From: an uncultured Ruminococcus sp. | GTDB taxonomy: Bacteria > Bacillota > Clostridia > Lachnospirales > Lachnospiraceae | Reading direction: 5' to 3' | DNA length: 64,000 bases | NCBI GenBank assembly: GCA_900541505.1 | Contig: UQKK01000007.1 | Location: 2,650 to 66,649 of the forward strand | In this document: piece by piece, positions 22,839-55,629 of the stretch | How positions within the stretch are numbered: position 1 is the stretch's first letter | Layout of the letters: every line of letters starts with the position of its first letter | Notes under the pieces: model-generated | Told to the model about the DNA's origin: nothing | The model's input: the letters and a program-made list of their open reading frames with translations, nothing else | Databases searched by the model: none | Translations under genes and position numbers: made by a program

Positions 22839-23791
22839 ACATACTGGAAACCATCACAGAACGCACAAGAGAACGCATTGCCGAAGAAAAGCGAAACATC
22901 CCGCTGACAGAAATCCGGACGCGCGCGGAGCAAGCCGCACAGACAGAAACCCGCAAGCGAGCGGAGCAAGCCGCGCAGACGGAAACCCGCAAGCGAGCGG
23001 AGCAAGCCGCGCAGGTGACGCAGAAATCAGCCGCGAAAAAGGAGCCGCCCTGCGCGAAACACTGTGAAGCAGACTTATCCGCTTTTCTTCCCTTTGAGGC
23101 TGCTTTGCGTGCGCCGGGACTTTCCTTCATCTGTGAGGTGAAGAAGGCGTCCCCCTCCAAAGGACTCATTGCCCCGGATTTCCCCTATCTGAACATTGCG
23201 CGGGACTATGAGGCGGCGGGAGCTGCCGCCATCTCCTGTCTCACAGAGCCCTACTGGTTCAAAGGAAGCGACCGCTATCTGGAGGAAATCGTCTCACAGG
23301 TCTCCATCCCCGTACTGCGGAAGGATTTCACCTATGACGAGTACATGATTTACCAGGCGAAAGCCCTGGGTGCCTCCGCCATCCTGCTCATTTGTTCTGT
23401 GCTGGATGACGCACAGCTTAAGGCATTTCACAGTCTCGCTTGGGAGCTTGGCTTAAGCGCTCTGGTGGAGACGCACAGCGAGGAGGAGATTGAACGGGCG
23501 CAGAGAATCGGCGCCTCCATCATCGGAGTCAACAACCGGAATCTCAAAGATTTCACTGTGGATATCCAAAACAGCATCCGCTTGAGGAAACTGGTGGACA
23601 GCGATACCGTATTTGTTTCCGAGAGCGGAATCACAGGCGCAAAAGACATGCGCGCCCTATATGAAAACGGCACCGACGCGGTGTTGATTGGGGAACTGCT
23701 CATGCGCTCCGGTGACCGCAGGGCAGCGCTTGCAGCATTAAAAATGGATGTAGATTTAAACACAGATGTAGATATGGGGAAAATGGAATGA
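22835..23791 (+). CDS. trpC: Indole-3-glycerol-phosphate synthase with a repeat-encoded N-terminal insertion
   Basis: C-terminal ~250 aa is a typical IGPS ([12 protein letters not shown]...[14 protein letters not shown]). N-terminal region contains ~2.6 copies of a 12-aa repeat ([12 protein letters not shown]). Confidence 0.85.
22925..23020 (+). repeat. In-frame 36-bp tandem repeat (~2.6 units) inside trpC
   Basis: gcggagcaagccgcacagacagaaacccgcaagcga / gcggagcaagccgcgcagacggaaacccgcaagcga / gcggagcaagccgcgcaggtgacg. Confidence 0.85.
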
Positions 23792-28919: not shown

Positions 28920-28952
28920 TTCAAGACTCGCCCGCGAGTCTTGGCGCGGGAG
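28920..28952. repeat. 33-bp GC-rich hairpin repeat, copy 2, at the rpoN transcription start region
   Basis: Exact 33/33 match to 2674-2706. Located between the rpoN -10 element and the rpoN RBS. Confidence 0.7.
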
Positions 28953-44131: not shown

Positions 44132-44200
44132 ACAAAGATGGCGGACATTGCATAAGACAGGCAGGGATTACATGAAACGAGCGGGATTGCGTGAAACAAG

Positions 44201-44285
44201 CAGGAATTGTACGAAACGAGCGGGTATTGCTTCTCCTTCTCCGGCTGTACCGGAATTTCAGGGGAAGCAATACCCGCCCGTTTTC
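44201..44285. terminator. Convergent terminator between treR and metG
   Basis: GAAACGAGCGGGTATTGCTTC ... GAAGCAATACCCGCCCGTTTTCTT. Preceded by three 20-bp tandem repeats (44161-44220). Confidence 0.6.
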
Positions 44286-46249: not shown

Positions 46250-46380
46250 CTAAAATAAATCGTTCCGTTTACGGAACTTTCGCGCCGGGCGCGGTCGCTT
46301 CGGCGACACCTTTTCCTCTTCGCGCCCGTGCGCATCGCACGGATTTTTTATTCAATGGGGAACGAAGTTTCCCATTGAAT
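46250..46380 (-). promoter_or_regulatory. Unclassified conserved structured 5'UTR element, copy A (between the metG T-box terminator and the metG RBS)
   Basis: ~125 nt with 4-5 hairpins. Collinear at nucleotide level with 52378-52500, including compensatory changes in hairpin 1. Confidence 0.5.
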
Positions 46381-46722
46381 AAAAAAATCCCGTCTTCTAT
46401 AAAGAAGACGGGTCATAACCGTGGTACCACTTCTTGGTTCATCCCTGCCTCTCGGCAGAGACCTCAGTAAGTGCCTGAACACTTGCCGCTGTAATGGGCG
46501 GACCCATCACATACTTACATGGAAAATTCACATGTGCAGAACTCTCTGCTGCTTTTCGTTCCTTTCCAGCTCGTATGTGCTGCTCAAAAGCCATCTTCCG
46601 CCAGTCTCCATACATCCCCTCTCACCTGCCGGGATTCTCTGTGATATATCCAAAGGCGTACTCTCTTTTTCATCGCTTTTCGTTATTGTAGTGAAAATCG
46701 TAACACAAAAAACTTTCGTTTG
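46381..46722 (-). promoter_or_regulatory. T-box riboswitch leader (tRNA-Met; AUG specifier) with its promoter
   Basis: Minus strand: promoter TTGACA-17-TACGAT (~46722-46690). AGAGA/GGUGAGAGG stem I. Specifier context gcggaagATGg. T-box GTGGTACCACGG (~46419-46431). Terminator GACCCGTCTTC/GAAGACGGG + TTTTTTT (46381-46413). Confidence 0.7.
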
Positions 46723-50896: not shown

Positions 50897-52348
50897 TTAC
50901 CCTCTTACTACATTCAAACACTCTATTTTTTCATCTTCCGGTCCGGTCAGGGAACATCCCTTCTCCTTGGCGTAGAGGATGTAGTCGATGATTTCATCTG
51001 TAATCTCCTCCCCCGGCGCCAGAATCGGGATTCCAGGCGGATAACACATGACAAACTCACTGCAGACACGCCCCTTGGCTTCCCGGATAGGAAGCGCTTC
51101 CTTCTGTGCGTAAAAGGACTCCTGAGGTGTCATCACCACTTTCGGAGAAATATATTCCTGAGAGAGCATACCCGTCTTATCCTTCTGATATCTGCGCCGC
51201 AAATCCGCTAAGGCACTCACCAGACGCTCCACCTCCAGCTTCCTGTCCCCAATGGAAAGGTAAGCCAGCACATTTCCCAAATCTCCGAACTCAATCTGGA
51301 TGTCGTACTCATCCCGCAGAATGTCGTAAACCTCAATCCCGGCAAGTCCGATGTCCAGCGTGTGAATGGACAGCTTGGTGGGGTCAAAATCATAGATACT
51401 GTCACCGTTTATCAGTTCTCTGCCAAAGGCATAATAATTCTCAATCTGGTTAATCTCCATCCGGGCGTACTCCGCAAGATTTACCACCCGCTCAAAGGAC
51501 TCCTCCCCCCGGAGCGCTAAGTTTCTCCTGGAAATATCCAGACTGGATAAAAGCAGGTAAGAACCGCTGGTGGTCTGTGTCAAGTTGATAATCTGCCGCA
51601 CATAGCCCGGATTCATGCCATTTCCTGTCAGCAAAAAGGAACTCTGGGTGAGACTTCCGCCCGATTTATGCATGCTCACCGACGCCATATCCGCCCCCGC
51701 TTCCATTGCGGACACCGGCAGATTTTTTCCGAAATAAAAATGCGTCCCGTGCGCCTCGTCCACCAGCACCTTCATGCCCTTCTCATGAGCTTTCTTTACA
51801 ATCGCCTTTAAGTTAGAACAGATTCCGTAATAGGTGGGATTGTTGACAAATACCGCCACCGCATCAGGATTTTCCTCGATGGCGCGCTCCACCGCGTCCA
51901 TCTTCATCCCCAGCGAGATTCCCAGCTTCTGGTCCACATCCGGGTTCACGTAAATCGGTTTCGCGCCGCAGAGCACCAGCGCATTGATGGCGCTGCGGTG
52001 TACATTCCTGGGCAGGATGATTTTATCGTCCTTCTTACAGCACCCTAAAATCATGGACTGTACCGACGAGGTGGTTCCCCCTACCATCAAAAAGGCGTGC
52101 TCCGCGCCAAACGCTTCCGCCGCCAGTTCCTCCGCCTCCTTGATGACAGAGATGGGATGACAGAGATTGTCCAGCGGTTTCATGGAATTGACGTCAATAC
52201 TGACGCACCGCTCCCCCAAAAGCCCTACCAGCTCCGGGTTCCCCCTGCCGTGTTTATGTCCCGGAACGTCAAAAGGTACGACCCGGTTTCTCCTGAATTT
52301 TTCCAATGCCTCATAGATTGGGGCGCTTTTCTGTGATAATTTTGCCAT
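50897..52348 (-). CDS. speA: Orn/Lys/Arg decarboxylase family I enzyme (SpeA-type arginine decarboxylase by operon context)
   Basis: OKR_DC_1 major domain (PLP Lys in SMHKSGGSLTQSS). First gene of the speE-speB-CANSDH-nspC operon. GGGAGGAG RBS. Confidence 0.8.
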   Translation of the reverse strand: MAKLSQKSAPIYEALEKFRRNRVVPFDVPGHKHGRGNPELVGLLGERCVSIDVNSMKPLDNLCHPISVIKEAEELAAEAFGAEHAFLMVGGTTSSVQSMILGCCKKDDKIILPRNVHRSAINALVLCGAKPIYVNPDVDQKLGISLGMKMDAVERAIEENPDAVAVFVNNPTYYGICSNLKAIVKKAHEKGMKVLVDEAHGTHFYFGKNLPVSAMEAGADMASVSMHKSGGSLTQSSFLLTGNGMNPGYVRQIINLTQTTSGSYLLLSSLDISRRNLALRGEESFERVVNLAEYARMEINQIENYYAFGRELINGDSIYDFDPTKLSIHTLDIGLAGIEVYDILRDEYDIQIEFGDLGNVLAYLSIGDRKLEVERLVSALADLRRRYQKDKTGMLSQEYISPKVVMTPQESFYAQKEALPIREAKGRVCSEFVMCYPPGIPILAPGEEITDEIIDYILYAKEKGCSLTGPEDEKIECLNVVRG

Positions 52349-52377
52349 GTTTCTCCTCCCAGAGGTTTCCTATGAAT

Positions 52378-52500
52378 AAAGAGTTCCGCTTGCGGAACTC
52401 TCGCGCCGAGCGCGGTCGCTTTAGCGACAAACTTCCACTGCGCGCGAGTGCGCATCAGCGGAGCGTTTTATTTAATAGGGAACGAAGTTTCCTATTAAGT
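52378..52500 (-). promoter_or_regulatory. Unclassified conserved structured 5'UTR element, copy B (between the speA leader terminator and the speA RBS)
   Basis: See copy A. Shared blocks: GGAAACTTCGTTCC hairpin, GATGCGCAC..GCGCG, GTCGCNNAAGCGACCGCGCYCGGCGCGARAGTTCCGYAARCGGAAC. Confidence 0.5.
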
Positions 52501-52551
52501 AAAAAACACAGGTGAGTCAGCTTACGCTTCGTGCCGCTTCACCTGTGTTTA
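52501..52551 (-). terminator. Intrinsic terminator inside the speA leader
   Basis: Minus strand AACACAGGTGA-loop-TCACCTGTGTT + TTTTT. Confidence 0.65.
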
Positions 52552-52819
52552 TATCCTGTATCATTCTTCGTTTTATTCCTACGGATGTAACAGATATTGG
52601 ACTTAGAGTCTATATAGCAAATATTTTTACTTTTACTACTCTTATTGACCGTTTCACAAGCTTCGTTTGTCACGAATATAGCGCCGGGATACACCGGCGA
52701 TACCGGTTATAAAGTAACCAACTTATAAAATCTGAGTTCCTCACTCAATCAATAATGCAGCTTGCGCCGCGTAAAATATTTGCATGGAGAACTTTCCAAC
52801 TACCTGCTTTCCATACATT

Positions 52820-52855
52820 CTGTATAGTAGCACAGAAAATCATAAAATTCAAGAA
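52820..52855 (-). promoter_or_regulatory. Putative sigma-A promoter of the speA operon
   Basis: Minus strand TTGAAT, 17 nt, TACTAT. This gives a ~465-nt 5'UTR. Confidence 0.5.
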
Positions 52856-53040
52856 GTTTTACTGCTGTTTTTATACATGTTACAGTTCGCAGGTACCTGC
52901 GAACTGTAACGATTTCAGCCCATTTAAAATGCATCTTCGATGCATGGGGCTGAAATCCTGCGATTCGCCATACTGGCGCATAGCTTGACAGCTAGTGTCA
53001 AGCTTGCGAGTGAACAGTACCCATCTTTCCCTTCCCTGCG

Positions 53041-55629
53041 TCACTCTGCTTTGGGAAAGATGACTTCCACTTTAAACAAATCCCCATCCAGATAGAGATT
53101 CATCTCTCCGCCCTGGAGTTTTGTGAGGCTCTGGGCGATGGAAAGTCCCAGACCGCTGCCTTCGGTGCTCCGTGAGAGGTCTCCCCGGATAAAGCGTTCC
53201 GTCAGTTCATCGGCGGAAATGTTAAGCTGCTGCTCGGAAATGTTTTTCAGGGAGAAGCGGACATGTTTCTCATCCGTCATTAAATCCGCATAAACTCTGG
53301 TGCCCGGCATAGCATATTTTGCCGCGTTGCCGAAAATATTTTCCAGCACCCTCCAAAGTCTCCTGCCGTCTGCGTACACAACCGCCTTTTCTTCGGGAAG
53401 TGTGGTTATCATGGTCAGGTTTCTCGCTGCGAATTTTTCTTCAAATTCTCCTTCTGTCTGCTGTACCATCTCCACCAAATCAACATTCATAAGCTCCAGA
53501 CTGATATTGCCGCTGCTGACTTTGGACGCTTCCACCACATCCTCTGTCAGTATCTTTAAGCGCTGCGCCTTCGCCTCCAAAATCTCCAGGTATCCGCGTA
53601 TCTTCTCATCCTGAAAATTCTCCCTCTTTAAAAGGTCCACATAGTTGATGATAGAAGTCAGCGGTGTCTTGATATCATGAGATACATTGGTAATCAAATC
53701 GGTTTTCAGGCGTTCGCTCTTTACGCTCTCCTCCACCGCGCGGTTCAAACCATTTCCGATATCATTTACTCGCTCTGCCAGCTCCCGGTTGACCCCTCTC
53801 AATCCCTGAGTAGAAATCTGATAGTTCAAATCACCTGAAGCAATCTTTTCAATCCCCTTCTTGAGGCGGTTCTTTGCCACGGCGTTTGTCACAACATAAT
53901 AGATAACTGCCAAATCCGCCGCAATTGCCGGAATCACGAAAAATGGATGCCATCCCGTGGCGACACACATGAAATGCAGTGCGAACAGCCCCGCTAATGC
54001 CACAACCTCTCTCCAAGTGACAGAACGATTCCTCCAGAACAGTGCAAGGAATTTTATCATCAAGCGGAGCAGGCTGTCCTTCCACAGCGACCTTGCCTTG
54101 ATTCTCCTGACAAGACTCAAATACCCTGCCAGGAAGCAGCATCCGGTGATAAATCCATATATACTCAGCACAATAACATCTCCCGTATCTGCATAGATTG
54201 TGGAAAGTCCACTGAAATACACATAAGGTCCGTGATTATAAACATTATCGGGATAATAATAGTTCATCGAGGAAATCCCTGTCCAGGCTGAGGACAGCAG
54301 TGCCGTAAAGCCCAGCCATATACCGATAACGACCGCAGCAGCGATTTCCGTTTTCCATCTGTCAAAACCATTCAGATGTACTTCTTCATCCTCCGCTCTT
54401 CTCCCGGCGATACATGTCAGCCATACGAGGCTTAAGATAAGACCAGACACCGCCGCGATTTCCAGAAGCAGGCTCGCCTTCAAGTAGGGAAGATTCTGCT
54501 CATAGCTTTTTTTGAGGTTGTAAAATTCATCCTGTATGGGGAAATCAGTATCCACCCATGCGGCAAATACAAAGTTGTCGTCCTTCGCCCCATCTCCGAT
54601 ATAGTGTTCCGCCATATCATGATAAGTGCCCGCAGAGATTGCTGTATTTGTCTGGAAATCCACGAGTTTCGGGTAGATGACCACATACTTGTTGTTCTCC
54701 GCCGCCATCATCTCCTCAATATGTTTCTCTGCCTGTGCATAATCCTGATACTCTGCTCTGTTGGTAAACACCTGCTTCGTATCTGTCTTCACATACATAT
54801 AAGTAAAGTTTGTATTGCCTTCCTCGTAAACCTCGGAATTATTCAGATACGTATAGAGTGGACTGTATAAGGTATAAAGTGCGTTGTCCAACATCTGGTA
54901 TATATCTGTCAGCCTTCCGTTGAGAGCCGGCGTCTCATTTACAATATCCAGCAGATTTTCTGCTCCTATGGGAGCATACTCCTCCTTTAAGGAAGACCCG
55001 AAGTTCCAGCAGTCCGTATATAATACTTTCCCTTCAGAATCCTCCACACGGATTTCCCCATATCCGGGAGATGTGCGGTATCCGTTTTTCAGTTCTTCCA
55101 GAACTTCCCCCAGAGGTTCTCCATCTGACACAATGCGGATTGCCCCCGCCTCTGTCATTTCCATAAATTCGTCCAGATAATAATAGTAGTAGCCTCCCTC
55201 TGGTTTTTCGCAGACAATGACGCCGGTCTCTGTATAAAGAGGGTCGGAAGAATTCACGTATTTCTTGCCCCAGTCGTATAAATCCCCCAGATAATACGCC
55301 ACTTTGGATTCATTTTCCCCTGAAATGGTCCCCTCCTCCGCATACTCCATGATATCTACGATTTTCTTCTCATCATATTTTCCGTCTGTCTCAAAATTCT
55401 CTTTCCAATACTGCTGGTCCAGTATTGTATATATGGCGTTTTCCATCGCGTTCTGAAAGTCTGCGGATTCCTCATATTCCGGCTTGTTAAGACTCCATGT
55501 CTCTTTCTGGAACAGATTGCCGGAAAACGCCGCCAGCAAAACAGTGCTTATCATCAGCATCGTCACACTCGCAATTGCCAGCAATACAAGCACTGTTTTT
55601 ATAAGAGGTTTTCTATACCACTTTTTCAT
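53041..55629 (-). CDS. Sensor histidine kinase with large N-terminal extracellular domain and multi-TM region (HisKA + HATPase_c)
   Basis: 862 aa. H-box NVSHDIKTPLTSIINYVDLL. G-boxes GSGLGLSIAQSL. AAAGGAG RBS. Confidence 0.85.
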   Translation of the reverse strand: MKKWYRKPLIKTVLVLLAIASVTMLMISTVLLAAFSGNLFQKETWSLNKPEYEESADFQNAMENAIYTILDQQYWKENFETDGKYDEKKIVDIMEYAEEGTISGENESKVAYYLGDLYDWGKKYVNSSDPLYTETGVIVCEKPEGGYYYYYLDEFMEMTEAGAIRIVSDGEPLGEVLEELKNGYRTSPGYGEIRVEDSEGKVLYTDCWNFGSSLKEEYAPIGAENLLDIVNETPALNGRLTDIYQMLDNALYTLYSPLYTYLNNSEVYEEGNTNFTYMYVKTDTKQVFTNRAEYQDYAQAEKHIEEMMAAENNKYVVIYPKLVDFQTNTAISAGTYHDMAEHYIGDGAKDDNFVFAAWVDTDFPIQDEFYNLKKSYEQNLPYLKASLLLEIAAVSGLILSLVWLTCIAGRRAEDEEVHLNGFDRWKTEIAAAVVIGIWLGFTALLSSAWTGISSMNYYYPDNVYNHGPYVYFSGLSTIYADTGDVIVLSIYGFITGCCFLAGYLSLVRRIKARSLWKDSLLRLMIKFLALFWRNRSVTWREVVALAGLFALHFMCVATGWHPFFVIPAIAADLAVIYYVVTNAVAKNRLKKGIEKIASGDLNYQISTQGLRGVNRELAERVNDIGNGLNRAVEESVKSERLKTDLITNVSHDIKTPLTSIINYVDLLKRENFQDEKIRGYLEILEAKAQRLKILTEDVVEASKVSSGNISLELMNVDLVEMVQQTEGEFEEKFAARNLTMITTLPEEKAVVYADGRRLWRVLENIFGNAAKYAMPGTRVYADLMTDEKHVRFSLKNISEQQLNISADELTERFIRGDLSRSTEGSGLGLSIAQSLTKLQGGEMNLYLDGDLFKVEVIFPKAE

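Follow-up and report, generated by a model that had tools for sequence, protein, structure and literature searches.

A conserved leader RNA upstream of a clostridial speA operon: a hairpin-less ldcC-family variant and candidate polyamine attenuator

Polyamines are made by almost all cells, and those of gut bacteria also reach the host. To our knowledge, how Clostridia regulate polyamines is largely unknown, and the sole validated polyamine riboswitch is a rare variant of the S-adenosylmethionine (SAM) riboswitch SAM-I, with 13 examples. We analyzed the leader of a speA-like gene that heads a polyamine operon in an uncultured, Mediterraneibacter-like Ruminococcus sp. of the Lachnospiraceae (GenBank GCA_900541505.1, contig UQKK01000007.1, positions 2,650 to 66,649). 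These 64,000 nucleotides (nt) are called the window below; coordinates are window positions, and the leader and its operon lie on the minus strand.

Two described systems come closest. The ldcC motif (Rfam RF02440) is an orphan cis-regulatory candidate, widespread in Firmicutes, that forms a hairpin with a bulge and possibly a pseudoknot. It is located in the 5' untranslated regions (UTRs) of genes for arginine, ornithine and SAM decarboxylases, PotA and a C39A peptidase, and a possible role in polyamine homeostasis was suggested for it (Weinberg et al. 2017, PMC5737381). We found no validated ldcC or polyamine riboswitch of this fold in the literature searched. The spermidine riboswitch, a SAM-I variant, is a precedent for direct polyamine sensing by an RNA that acts as an OFF switch (Salvail et al. 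2023, PMC10853860).

A conserved folded RNA in the speA leader

In 69 of 80 species, BLASTN and nhmmer searches with the window's leader located a core of ~150 nt (window 52761-52604) that precedes speA and shares its strand. These speA loci were seeded with SpeA and taken from among the matches listed; the hosts of the core are Lachnospiraceae, Oscillospiraceae, Sharpea, Acidaminococcus and one metagenome-assembled Synergistaceae genome. Scanning metagenomes with a 29-base core pattern provided a second, independent sample of at least 120 loci among the matches listed, and 100 of its contigs were modeled. Near-invariant blocks (UUAUUGAUUGAGU, GCUCAAAUUUUAUAAGUUGGUUACUUUAUAACC, ACUUGUGAAACGGUCAAUAAGAGUAGUAAAAGU and UUGCUAUAUAGACUCU) alternate in the core with hairpins that vary in both length and sequence, a pattern that is typical of structured RNA. 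At eight metagenome-contig places with an identical SpeA protein the upstream domain was identical in all, so strains of the same species supply no covariation signal.

We built a covariance model, R1, on alignment A2; it has 146 positions and 37 pairs in seven helices (hp1, Pa, Pb, Pd, Pe, Pc and Pf). In the window R1 matches the conserved core domain at 52773-52602 over the full model length (126.6 bits, E = 5.9e-23). Each of the 69 loci has exactly one match, with no further match in the 853 kb searched, and every one of the 100 metagenome contigs has a single match as well. The 853-kb search included the remainder of the window and its 5-kb flanks, where a second copy of the core was looked for and rejected.

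Are the variable hairpins held together by pairing? In the genome sample, 94.3% of alignment cells held standard pairs, against 27-41% when partners were slid by 1-3 columns, and 18 pairs changed on both sides (146 cells), with none of 500 shuffles reaching any of these measures; alignments fitted to a model lean toward that model, which inflates pairing counts. The metagenome sample replicated the result, with 96.1% paired versus 23-44% after sliding, 14 pairs changing on both sides and again 0/500 shuffles. Compensatory changes were most numerous in hp1, Pc and Pb and few in Pe and Pf. Pd is backed by natural deletions in two loci (L075 and L053) that leave a plain AAG...CUU hairpin. The whole speA leader folded better than shuffled sequence (z = -8.4), and 0/100 shuffles folded equally well. 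We conclude that the upstream domain is a real conserved folded RNA and not a set of chance hairpins.

An earlier note on this DNA, made from the sequence alone, had proposed that a TTGAAT-17-TACTAT promoter drives the leader. The promoter is present, of sigma-70 type, with slightly corrected coordinates (52852-52824): the -35 hexamer lies at 52852-52847, the 17-nt spacer carries an extended TGn, and the -10 hexamer lies at 52829-52824. Only 8/12 positions match the consensus, which is why a consensus scanner missed it. In relatives without the ldcC hairpin the position is conserved, a sigma-70-type -10 always ending 7 nt before an invariant GUAUGGA; this spacing supports the proposed promoter. 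We infer that transcription starts near 52817, directly before GUAUGGA (52816-52810). The leader then runs for ~469 nt to the ATG at 52348, close to the ~465 nt first suggested.

In the architecture that we propose, the ends of the RNA would pair with each other through two helices, P0 and P(-1), enclosing hp1 (52770-52757) and a junction closed by Pa (52755-52749 with 52648-52642). The junction would carry Pb (52748-52732) and an arm based on Pd (52724-52720 with 52662-52658), which would branch into Pe (52719-52705) and the Pc region (52699-52662, two hairpins in the window). The invariant block CUUGUGAAACGG occupies 52660-52649; it is followed by Pf (52640-52636 with 52620-52616) and the core tail AUAUAGACUCU (52615-52605). 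A metagenome locus (L149, positions 224-355) has a ~150-nt insert within the Pe hairpin and keeps the flanking blocks, which suggests that the Pe loop tolerates large insertions.

P0 pairs the 5' end of the transcript (UAUGGA, AGCAGGUA, UUGGA; 52815-52795) with the sequence directly 3' of AUAGACUCU (UCCAA, UAUCUGUU, UCCGUA; 52601-52580). The pairing is part of the minimum-free-energy fold, and its duplex energy in the window is -20.1 kcal/mol. A MAFFT alignment of full-length variants (A4) was too badly registered in P0 for pair counts, and duplex energies were used instead: among 22 relatives the two strands of the same leader gave a mean of -16.6 kcal/mol, compared with -9.0 +/- 3.3 for shuffled 3' strands. 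One group of leaders (that of L030) retains P0 with unrelated sequences. P0 encloses two further helices. One of them, P1 (AGAGUCU/AGACUCU), has a degenerate form in the window and is kept in one relative (L037) by a compensatory pair, AAGU/ACUU. P(-1) pairs GCAAAUAUUUU (52783-52773) with AAAAUAUUUGC (52627-52617) in the window, and L085 and L072 have the compensatory pair GCAAUUA/UAAUUGC.

We considered whether the conserved stretch might instead encode a leader peptide or small protein, and rejected this. The conserved blocks have stop codons in all three frames, hairpin loop lengths vary by non-multiples of three, and the AUG of GUAUGGA opens a 4-codon open reading frame (ORF) in the window and a 29-codon ORF in L058.

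Terminator, competing helix and signal

An intrinsic terminator had been claimed downstream of this domain, and we found it at 52549-52501. It pairs AACACAGGTGA (52549-52539) with TCACCTGTGTT (52515-52505) and runs into T6 (52506-52501). As RNA, it is an 11-bp stem (AACACAGGUGA/UCACCUGUGUU) with a 23-nt loop that holds a small inner hairpin, followed by U6, and has a fold energy of -24.7 kcal/mol. A terminator scanner missed it because of the 23-nt loop. A homologous terminator, a strong hairpin with a U run, follows the core in 52 of the 54 loci examined, and its 5' arm nearly always starts C-R-C-A-R-G.

The core itself contains sequence complementary to the terminator's 5' arm. When the whole leader is considered, the site that pairs best with this arm overlaps the invariant CUUGUG (52660-52655 in the window) in 32 of the 54 loci, as against 45 of 1080 shuffled arms (4%). 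CUUGUG lies with the 3' strands of Pc and Pd. Duplexes between the arm and the Pc strand of the same species were more stable than cross-species duplexes (-12.3 versus -10.3 kcal/mol; Wilcoxon p = 9e-11, 115 distinct leaders); in one leader (L091), GUGCAGACUUGUG pairs against CGCAAGUCUGCAC with -22.5 kcal/mol. Since the arm is complementary, species by species, to a covarying strand of the core, that strand is a candidate antiterminator, and the folded core would correspond to termination. Across the family, the structure, the terminator and the competing helix are all conserved. In the window the candidate antiterminator strand is GCUUGUGAAACGG... (52661-52644), which can pair with the terminator arm CACAGGUG; at this locus the assignment is taken by analogy from the family.

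We propose that the speA leader attenuates transcription in cis and that it does so by means of a large structured RNA of ~235 nt (52816-52580). The folded core would lock up the 3' strands of Pc and Pd (...CUUGUG), so that the terminator at 52549-52501 takes shape and polymerase halts ahead of speA. If the core is not kept closed, that strand would instead pair with the terminator's 5' arm as an antiterminator, and polymerase would read through into speA-speE-speB and the carboxynorspermidine genes. The earlier note had suggested a leader-terminator attenuator tied to the polyamine genes, and the comparative data bear this out with a conserved covarying RNA, a terminator and an antiterminator pairing. 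We regard the attenuator as very probable.

Could the main product be the terminated RNA itself, of ~315 nt, acting in trans as a small RNA (sRNA)? Rfam names RF02440 SpF59_sRNA, after the Streptococcus sRNA SpF59, and an RNA released at a strong terminator would be stable and structured. However, the element always sits directly upstream of a polyamine gene and on its strand, in 69/69 genome loci and in 98/98 assignable metagenome loci (the 98 count four C39-like cases), and a terminator arm complementary to an antiterminator strand is meaningful only if regulation acts in cis. Hence, an sRNA as the main product seems very improbable.

The regulated genes bear on the signal. Among the 120 metagenome loci, the first gene 3' of the core encodes a SpeA-like decarboxylase in 65, PotA in 16, SpeD in 11, a C39-like peptidase in 4 and a PotD-like protein in 2; of the remaining 22 loci, which have no assignable gene, 21 are too short and one has an unidentified first ORF. 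NCBIfam bears out PotA (551 bits) and SpeD (400 bits), and in two loci (L058 and L061) the leader precedes speD-speA. One RNA family thus precedes both synthesis and uptake genes, as fits end-product repression. The C39-like peptidase genes (L095, L118 and two more metagenome loci) encode secreted proteins with no NCBIfam match, a context reminiscent of the "endopeptidase C39A" genes that were linked with the ldcC motif in 2017.

The signal had been left open as polyamine, arginine or SAM-related. The gene set and the logic of the platform favor an end-product polyamine over arginine or SAM. We suggest that spermidine or a close relative would bind the RNA directly and stabilize its folded state, making the leader an OFF riboswitch. 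Arginine, agmatine, SAM or decarboxylated SAM might act instead, as ON or OFF signals, or the RNA might respond to cations in general (Mg2+ or polyamine): the regulon does include the first enzymes acting on arginine and SAM (speA, speD), and polyamines bind RNA nonspecifically. We think this doubtful, because the uptake genes potA and potD under the element fit an end product better than a precursor, and the geometry of the platform, in which a folded core leads to termination, suits feedback repression.

A different sensor for the same attenuator would be a protein or other trans-acting factor, for instance a polyamine-responsive RNA-binding protein on the conserved single-stranded blocks of the core. 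Long near-invariant blocks such as ACUUGUGAAACGGUCAAUAAGAGUAGUAAAAGU and UUGCUAUAUAGACUCU are indeed typical of protein-binding sites too, and the literature searched gives no ligand for this RNA. Yet no candidate gene for an RNA-binding protein co-occurs across the 69 and 120 loci, where the neighbors vary, and a multi-helix junction with conserved joining strands looks aptamer-like. We therefore consider a protein sensor unlikely, if less so than a different small molecule or the opposite polarity.

Several observations weigh against an attenuator that senses polyamines directly, the model-leaning pairing counts given above among them. Pa and Pd scarcely vary, and covariation therefore speaks neither for nor against them; Pf and P(-1) both require the same UUGCU, so that either may be the native helix; and the Pc region of the window, with its two hairpins, is atypical. 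The canonical antiterminator pairing in the window (CACAGGUG/AGCUUGUG) is weak, at -8.8 kcal/mol with two G-U pairs, and another site (52700-52683, in the two-hairpin Pc region) pairs better, at -12.3 kcal/mol. Leaders of the potA type (L094, L107) show poor complementarity between terminator arm and core strand, and these may regulate at translation instead. The ldcC hairpin alone was judged too simple for certain riboswitch status (PMC5737381), and we found no paper that tests the ldcC motif or gives its ligand. Taking both sides together, we put the full statement, an attenuator with direct sensing of a polyamine by the RNA, at a probability of roughly 0.6.

Relation to the ldcC motif and other Rfam families

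With Rfam 15, no family reached its gathering score anywhere in the window. The Infernal scan of the leader that had been proposed for this locus (cmscan, 52250-53100) gave no credible family even at E <= 10, only noise (snoRNA, CyVA-1, lncRNA); at that threshold RF02440, the SAM clan and, in the speA leader, the T-box (RF00230) were all without a match. These results agree with the view that the leader is not a T-box, S-box, L-box or purine element. The metG leader (46401-46682, minus strand) served as positive control for the Rfam scans: it is a T-box and scores 90.0 bits. The Rfam gathering score is 93, and the standard scan of the window came out empty because the metG T-box falls just under it.

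Might the speA leader nevertheless resemble the metG leader, which lies 6 kb away, and sense tRNA as a divergent T-box or by other means? Its length, its terminator and its Firmicute host would suit this, as would the genuine T-box nearby. But the model that gives 90 bits on the metG leader is silent at E <= 10 here, the speA leader has neither T-box sequence nor specifier-loop features, and its gene set is unrelated to aminoacylation. T-box identity is effectively refuted.

The related loci told more. In a scan of 13 of them at gathering scores, RF02440, listed as "SpF59_sRNA (ldcC RNA)", was present in 7 with 61-74 bits; the model is 54 nt long and its gathering score is 37.2. The matches end 1-7 nt before the R1 core begins, directly 5' of hp1, and the core itself was covered by no Rfam family in these 13 loci. 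The canonical RF02440 hairpin occurs in ~36/69 genome loci and ~102/120 metagenome loci (about 85%); the remainder, including the window, lack it. RF02440-bearing leaders score 85-162 bits with R1, and the window, at 126.6 bits, lies within that range. Since one model matches both kinds of leader and the gene list is the same, the core and the ldcC hairpin belong to one leader family.

The window carries little of the published motif. It lacks the 54-nt RF02440 hairpin, with its 20-nt 3' bulge containing GGAGUUAAGGCCAUACGGACAGCCGGGUC, and retains only ...GUUCUCCAUGCAAAUA, which aligns with GGAGUUAAGGCCAUACGGACA. Its gene context is that of the motif: the operon reads speA-speE-speB followed by the genes for carboxynorspermidine dehydrogenase and carboxynorspermidine decarboxylase, and the gene list of the family is the published list. 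In ldcC-type leaders, the same 3' tail finds its partner in the 45 nt that precede the RF02440 hairpin (mean -20.4 versus -11.9 +/- 3.3 kcal/mol for shuffled sequence, 123 loci). This pairing indicates an end-closed RNA, 230-280 nt long, in which the RF02440 hairpin is an internal domain that may be present or absent. We conclude that the window holds a variant of the ldcC family that has lost the hairpin and kept a larger domain outside the Rfam model. The window gives no Rfam match because that hairpin, the sole modeled part, is missing. The leader had been described as of unknown class. It does lack an Rfam match in the window; it is not wholly unknown, as the same leader in relatives carries the RF02440 hairpin.

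Thus, an orphan candidate turns out to be one small part of a far larger RNA that covaries and has a terminator/antiterminator platform. Natural variants such as that of the window do without the published hairpin, and a sizeable share of the family, the window included, escapes the Rfam model. We tentatively entertain a bolder possibility, to which we give less credence than to direct sensing as such: the ~235-nt end-closed RNA (core, P0 and P(-1)) may be the actual aptamer of a polyamine riboswitch class that is widespread and has a fold of its own, governing synthesis (speA, speD) and uptake (potABCD) in Clostridia and neighboring Firmicutes, with the 54-nt ldcC hairpin merely an optional accessory and the window variant a minimal natural form. 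If so, the accessory status of the hairpin could explain the motif's long orphan state, and the hairpin-less form of the window would be the best construct for finding the ligand. The analysis defines the RNA to test, turning an eight-year-old orphan into a directly testable riboswitch hypothesis.

Neighboring features and comparison with known systems

The operon's first gene, speA-like (50897-52348), encodes an ornithine/lysine/arginine decarboxylase by Pfam and NCBIfam matches. By Pfam, it is followed, down to 46812, by speE (spermidine synthase), speB (agmatinase) and the two carboxynorspermidine genes; metG, with its own leader, lies 3' of the operon on the same strand. Upstream, a histidine kinase gene on the minus strand ends at 53041, leaving a 692-nt intergenic region before speA. 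Two large palindromes lie there, between the stop codon of the kinase gene and the speA promoter: a 47-nt hairpin (GATTTCAGCCC...GGGCTGAAATC; 52957-52911) and a perfect 32-nt palindrome, given one base off as 52880-52911 in the earlier note and corrected here to 52910-52879. That note counted both among the leader's hairpins. Being 5' of the promoter, they fall outside the leader transcript, so that this part of the claim fails and the part concerning a conserved folded domain holds. Neither palindrome (together 52879-52957) has a U-tract, and both show small strain differences; they could be an unusual terminator or operator.

Between the terminator U-tract and the ribosome-binding site of speA lies a mosaic of short GC-rich hairpins, already recognized as copy B of a repeat element (52375-52506, minus strand); it is 85-88% identical to copy A (46254-46386, minus strand), which lies behind the terminator of the metG T-box. 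Both copies directly follow attenuator terminators and precede a ribosome-binding site. Copy B, of ~130 nt, starts at the terminator U-tract and ends ~15 nt before the Shine-Dalgarno sequence. One hairpin (ACUUAAUAGGAAAC/GUUCCCUAUUAAAU) is lengthened by the U-tract together with an A-tract farther downstream; three or four short hairpins, rich in GC, come next, and the last hairpin of the element, with UUUAUU, resembles a weak second terminator.

Copy B is absent from one strain contig (L004), three others (L002, L003 and L006) have an extra 52-nt module, and weak relatives of the element occur at the same place in L080, L086 and L034. Copy A was present in 10/10 strain contigs examined. Copy B is dispensable for the attenuator. 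We considered a transposon-like insertion for copy B and did not adopt it: a 9-nt direct repeat (ATAGGAAAC) marks the L004 junction, which makes insertion and deletion indistinguishable, copy A has no such duplication, and no terminal inverted repeats were seen. By analogy, copy B may be likened to the mosaic repeats of the repetitive extragenic palindrome and bacterial interspersed mosaic element (REP/BIME) kind, which are likewise short, modular, GC-rich and palindromic, intergenic and strain-variable, with modules gained. Unlike those, the element was seen in two copies only, both right after attenuator terminators, and no transposase-like end signatures were found.

Other repeats were noted elsewhere in the window. 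A 39-nt tandem repeat downstream of metG (44147-44224) differs in copy number between two strain contigs (L209 and L210; a 78-nt difference), a 36-nt tandem repeat has three copies at 22902-23014, and a perfect 33-nt repeat occurs at 2674-2706 and 28920-28952, 26 kb apart.

How, then, does the speA leader compare with the systems described before? Like a T-box leader (RF00230), it is a long Firmicute leader with a terminator and a candidate antiterminator that would compete, and the metG T-box is likewise followed by a repeat copy; unlike a T-box, it shows no match in sequence or structure and no sign of tRNA. With the ldcC motif it shares placement in the 5' UTRs of genes for arginine, ornithine and SAM decarboxylases, potA and a C39 peptidase, as well as orphan status. 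The window differs in having no RF02440 hairpin and a longer P(-1) helix in its place, where most relatives have the hairpin. The motif and its Rfam model span 54 nt, and the 146-nt core and end-closing helices lie outside that model.

The spermidine riboswitch resembles the window RNA in its association with polyamine genes in Firmicutes, its targets being speE, speB, speD and ldcC. It is a transcription-termination OFF switch, and the same logic is proposed here for the window RNA. It has the four-way-junction fold of SAM-I and 13 known examples, all in Bacilli (PMC10853860). Its published four-stem junction consensus is unrelated to the core blocks of the speA leader. In contrast to the spermidine riboswitch, the window RNA has no SAM-family Rfam match, has an unrelated architecture and is far more widespread in Clostridia.

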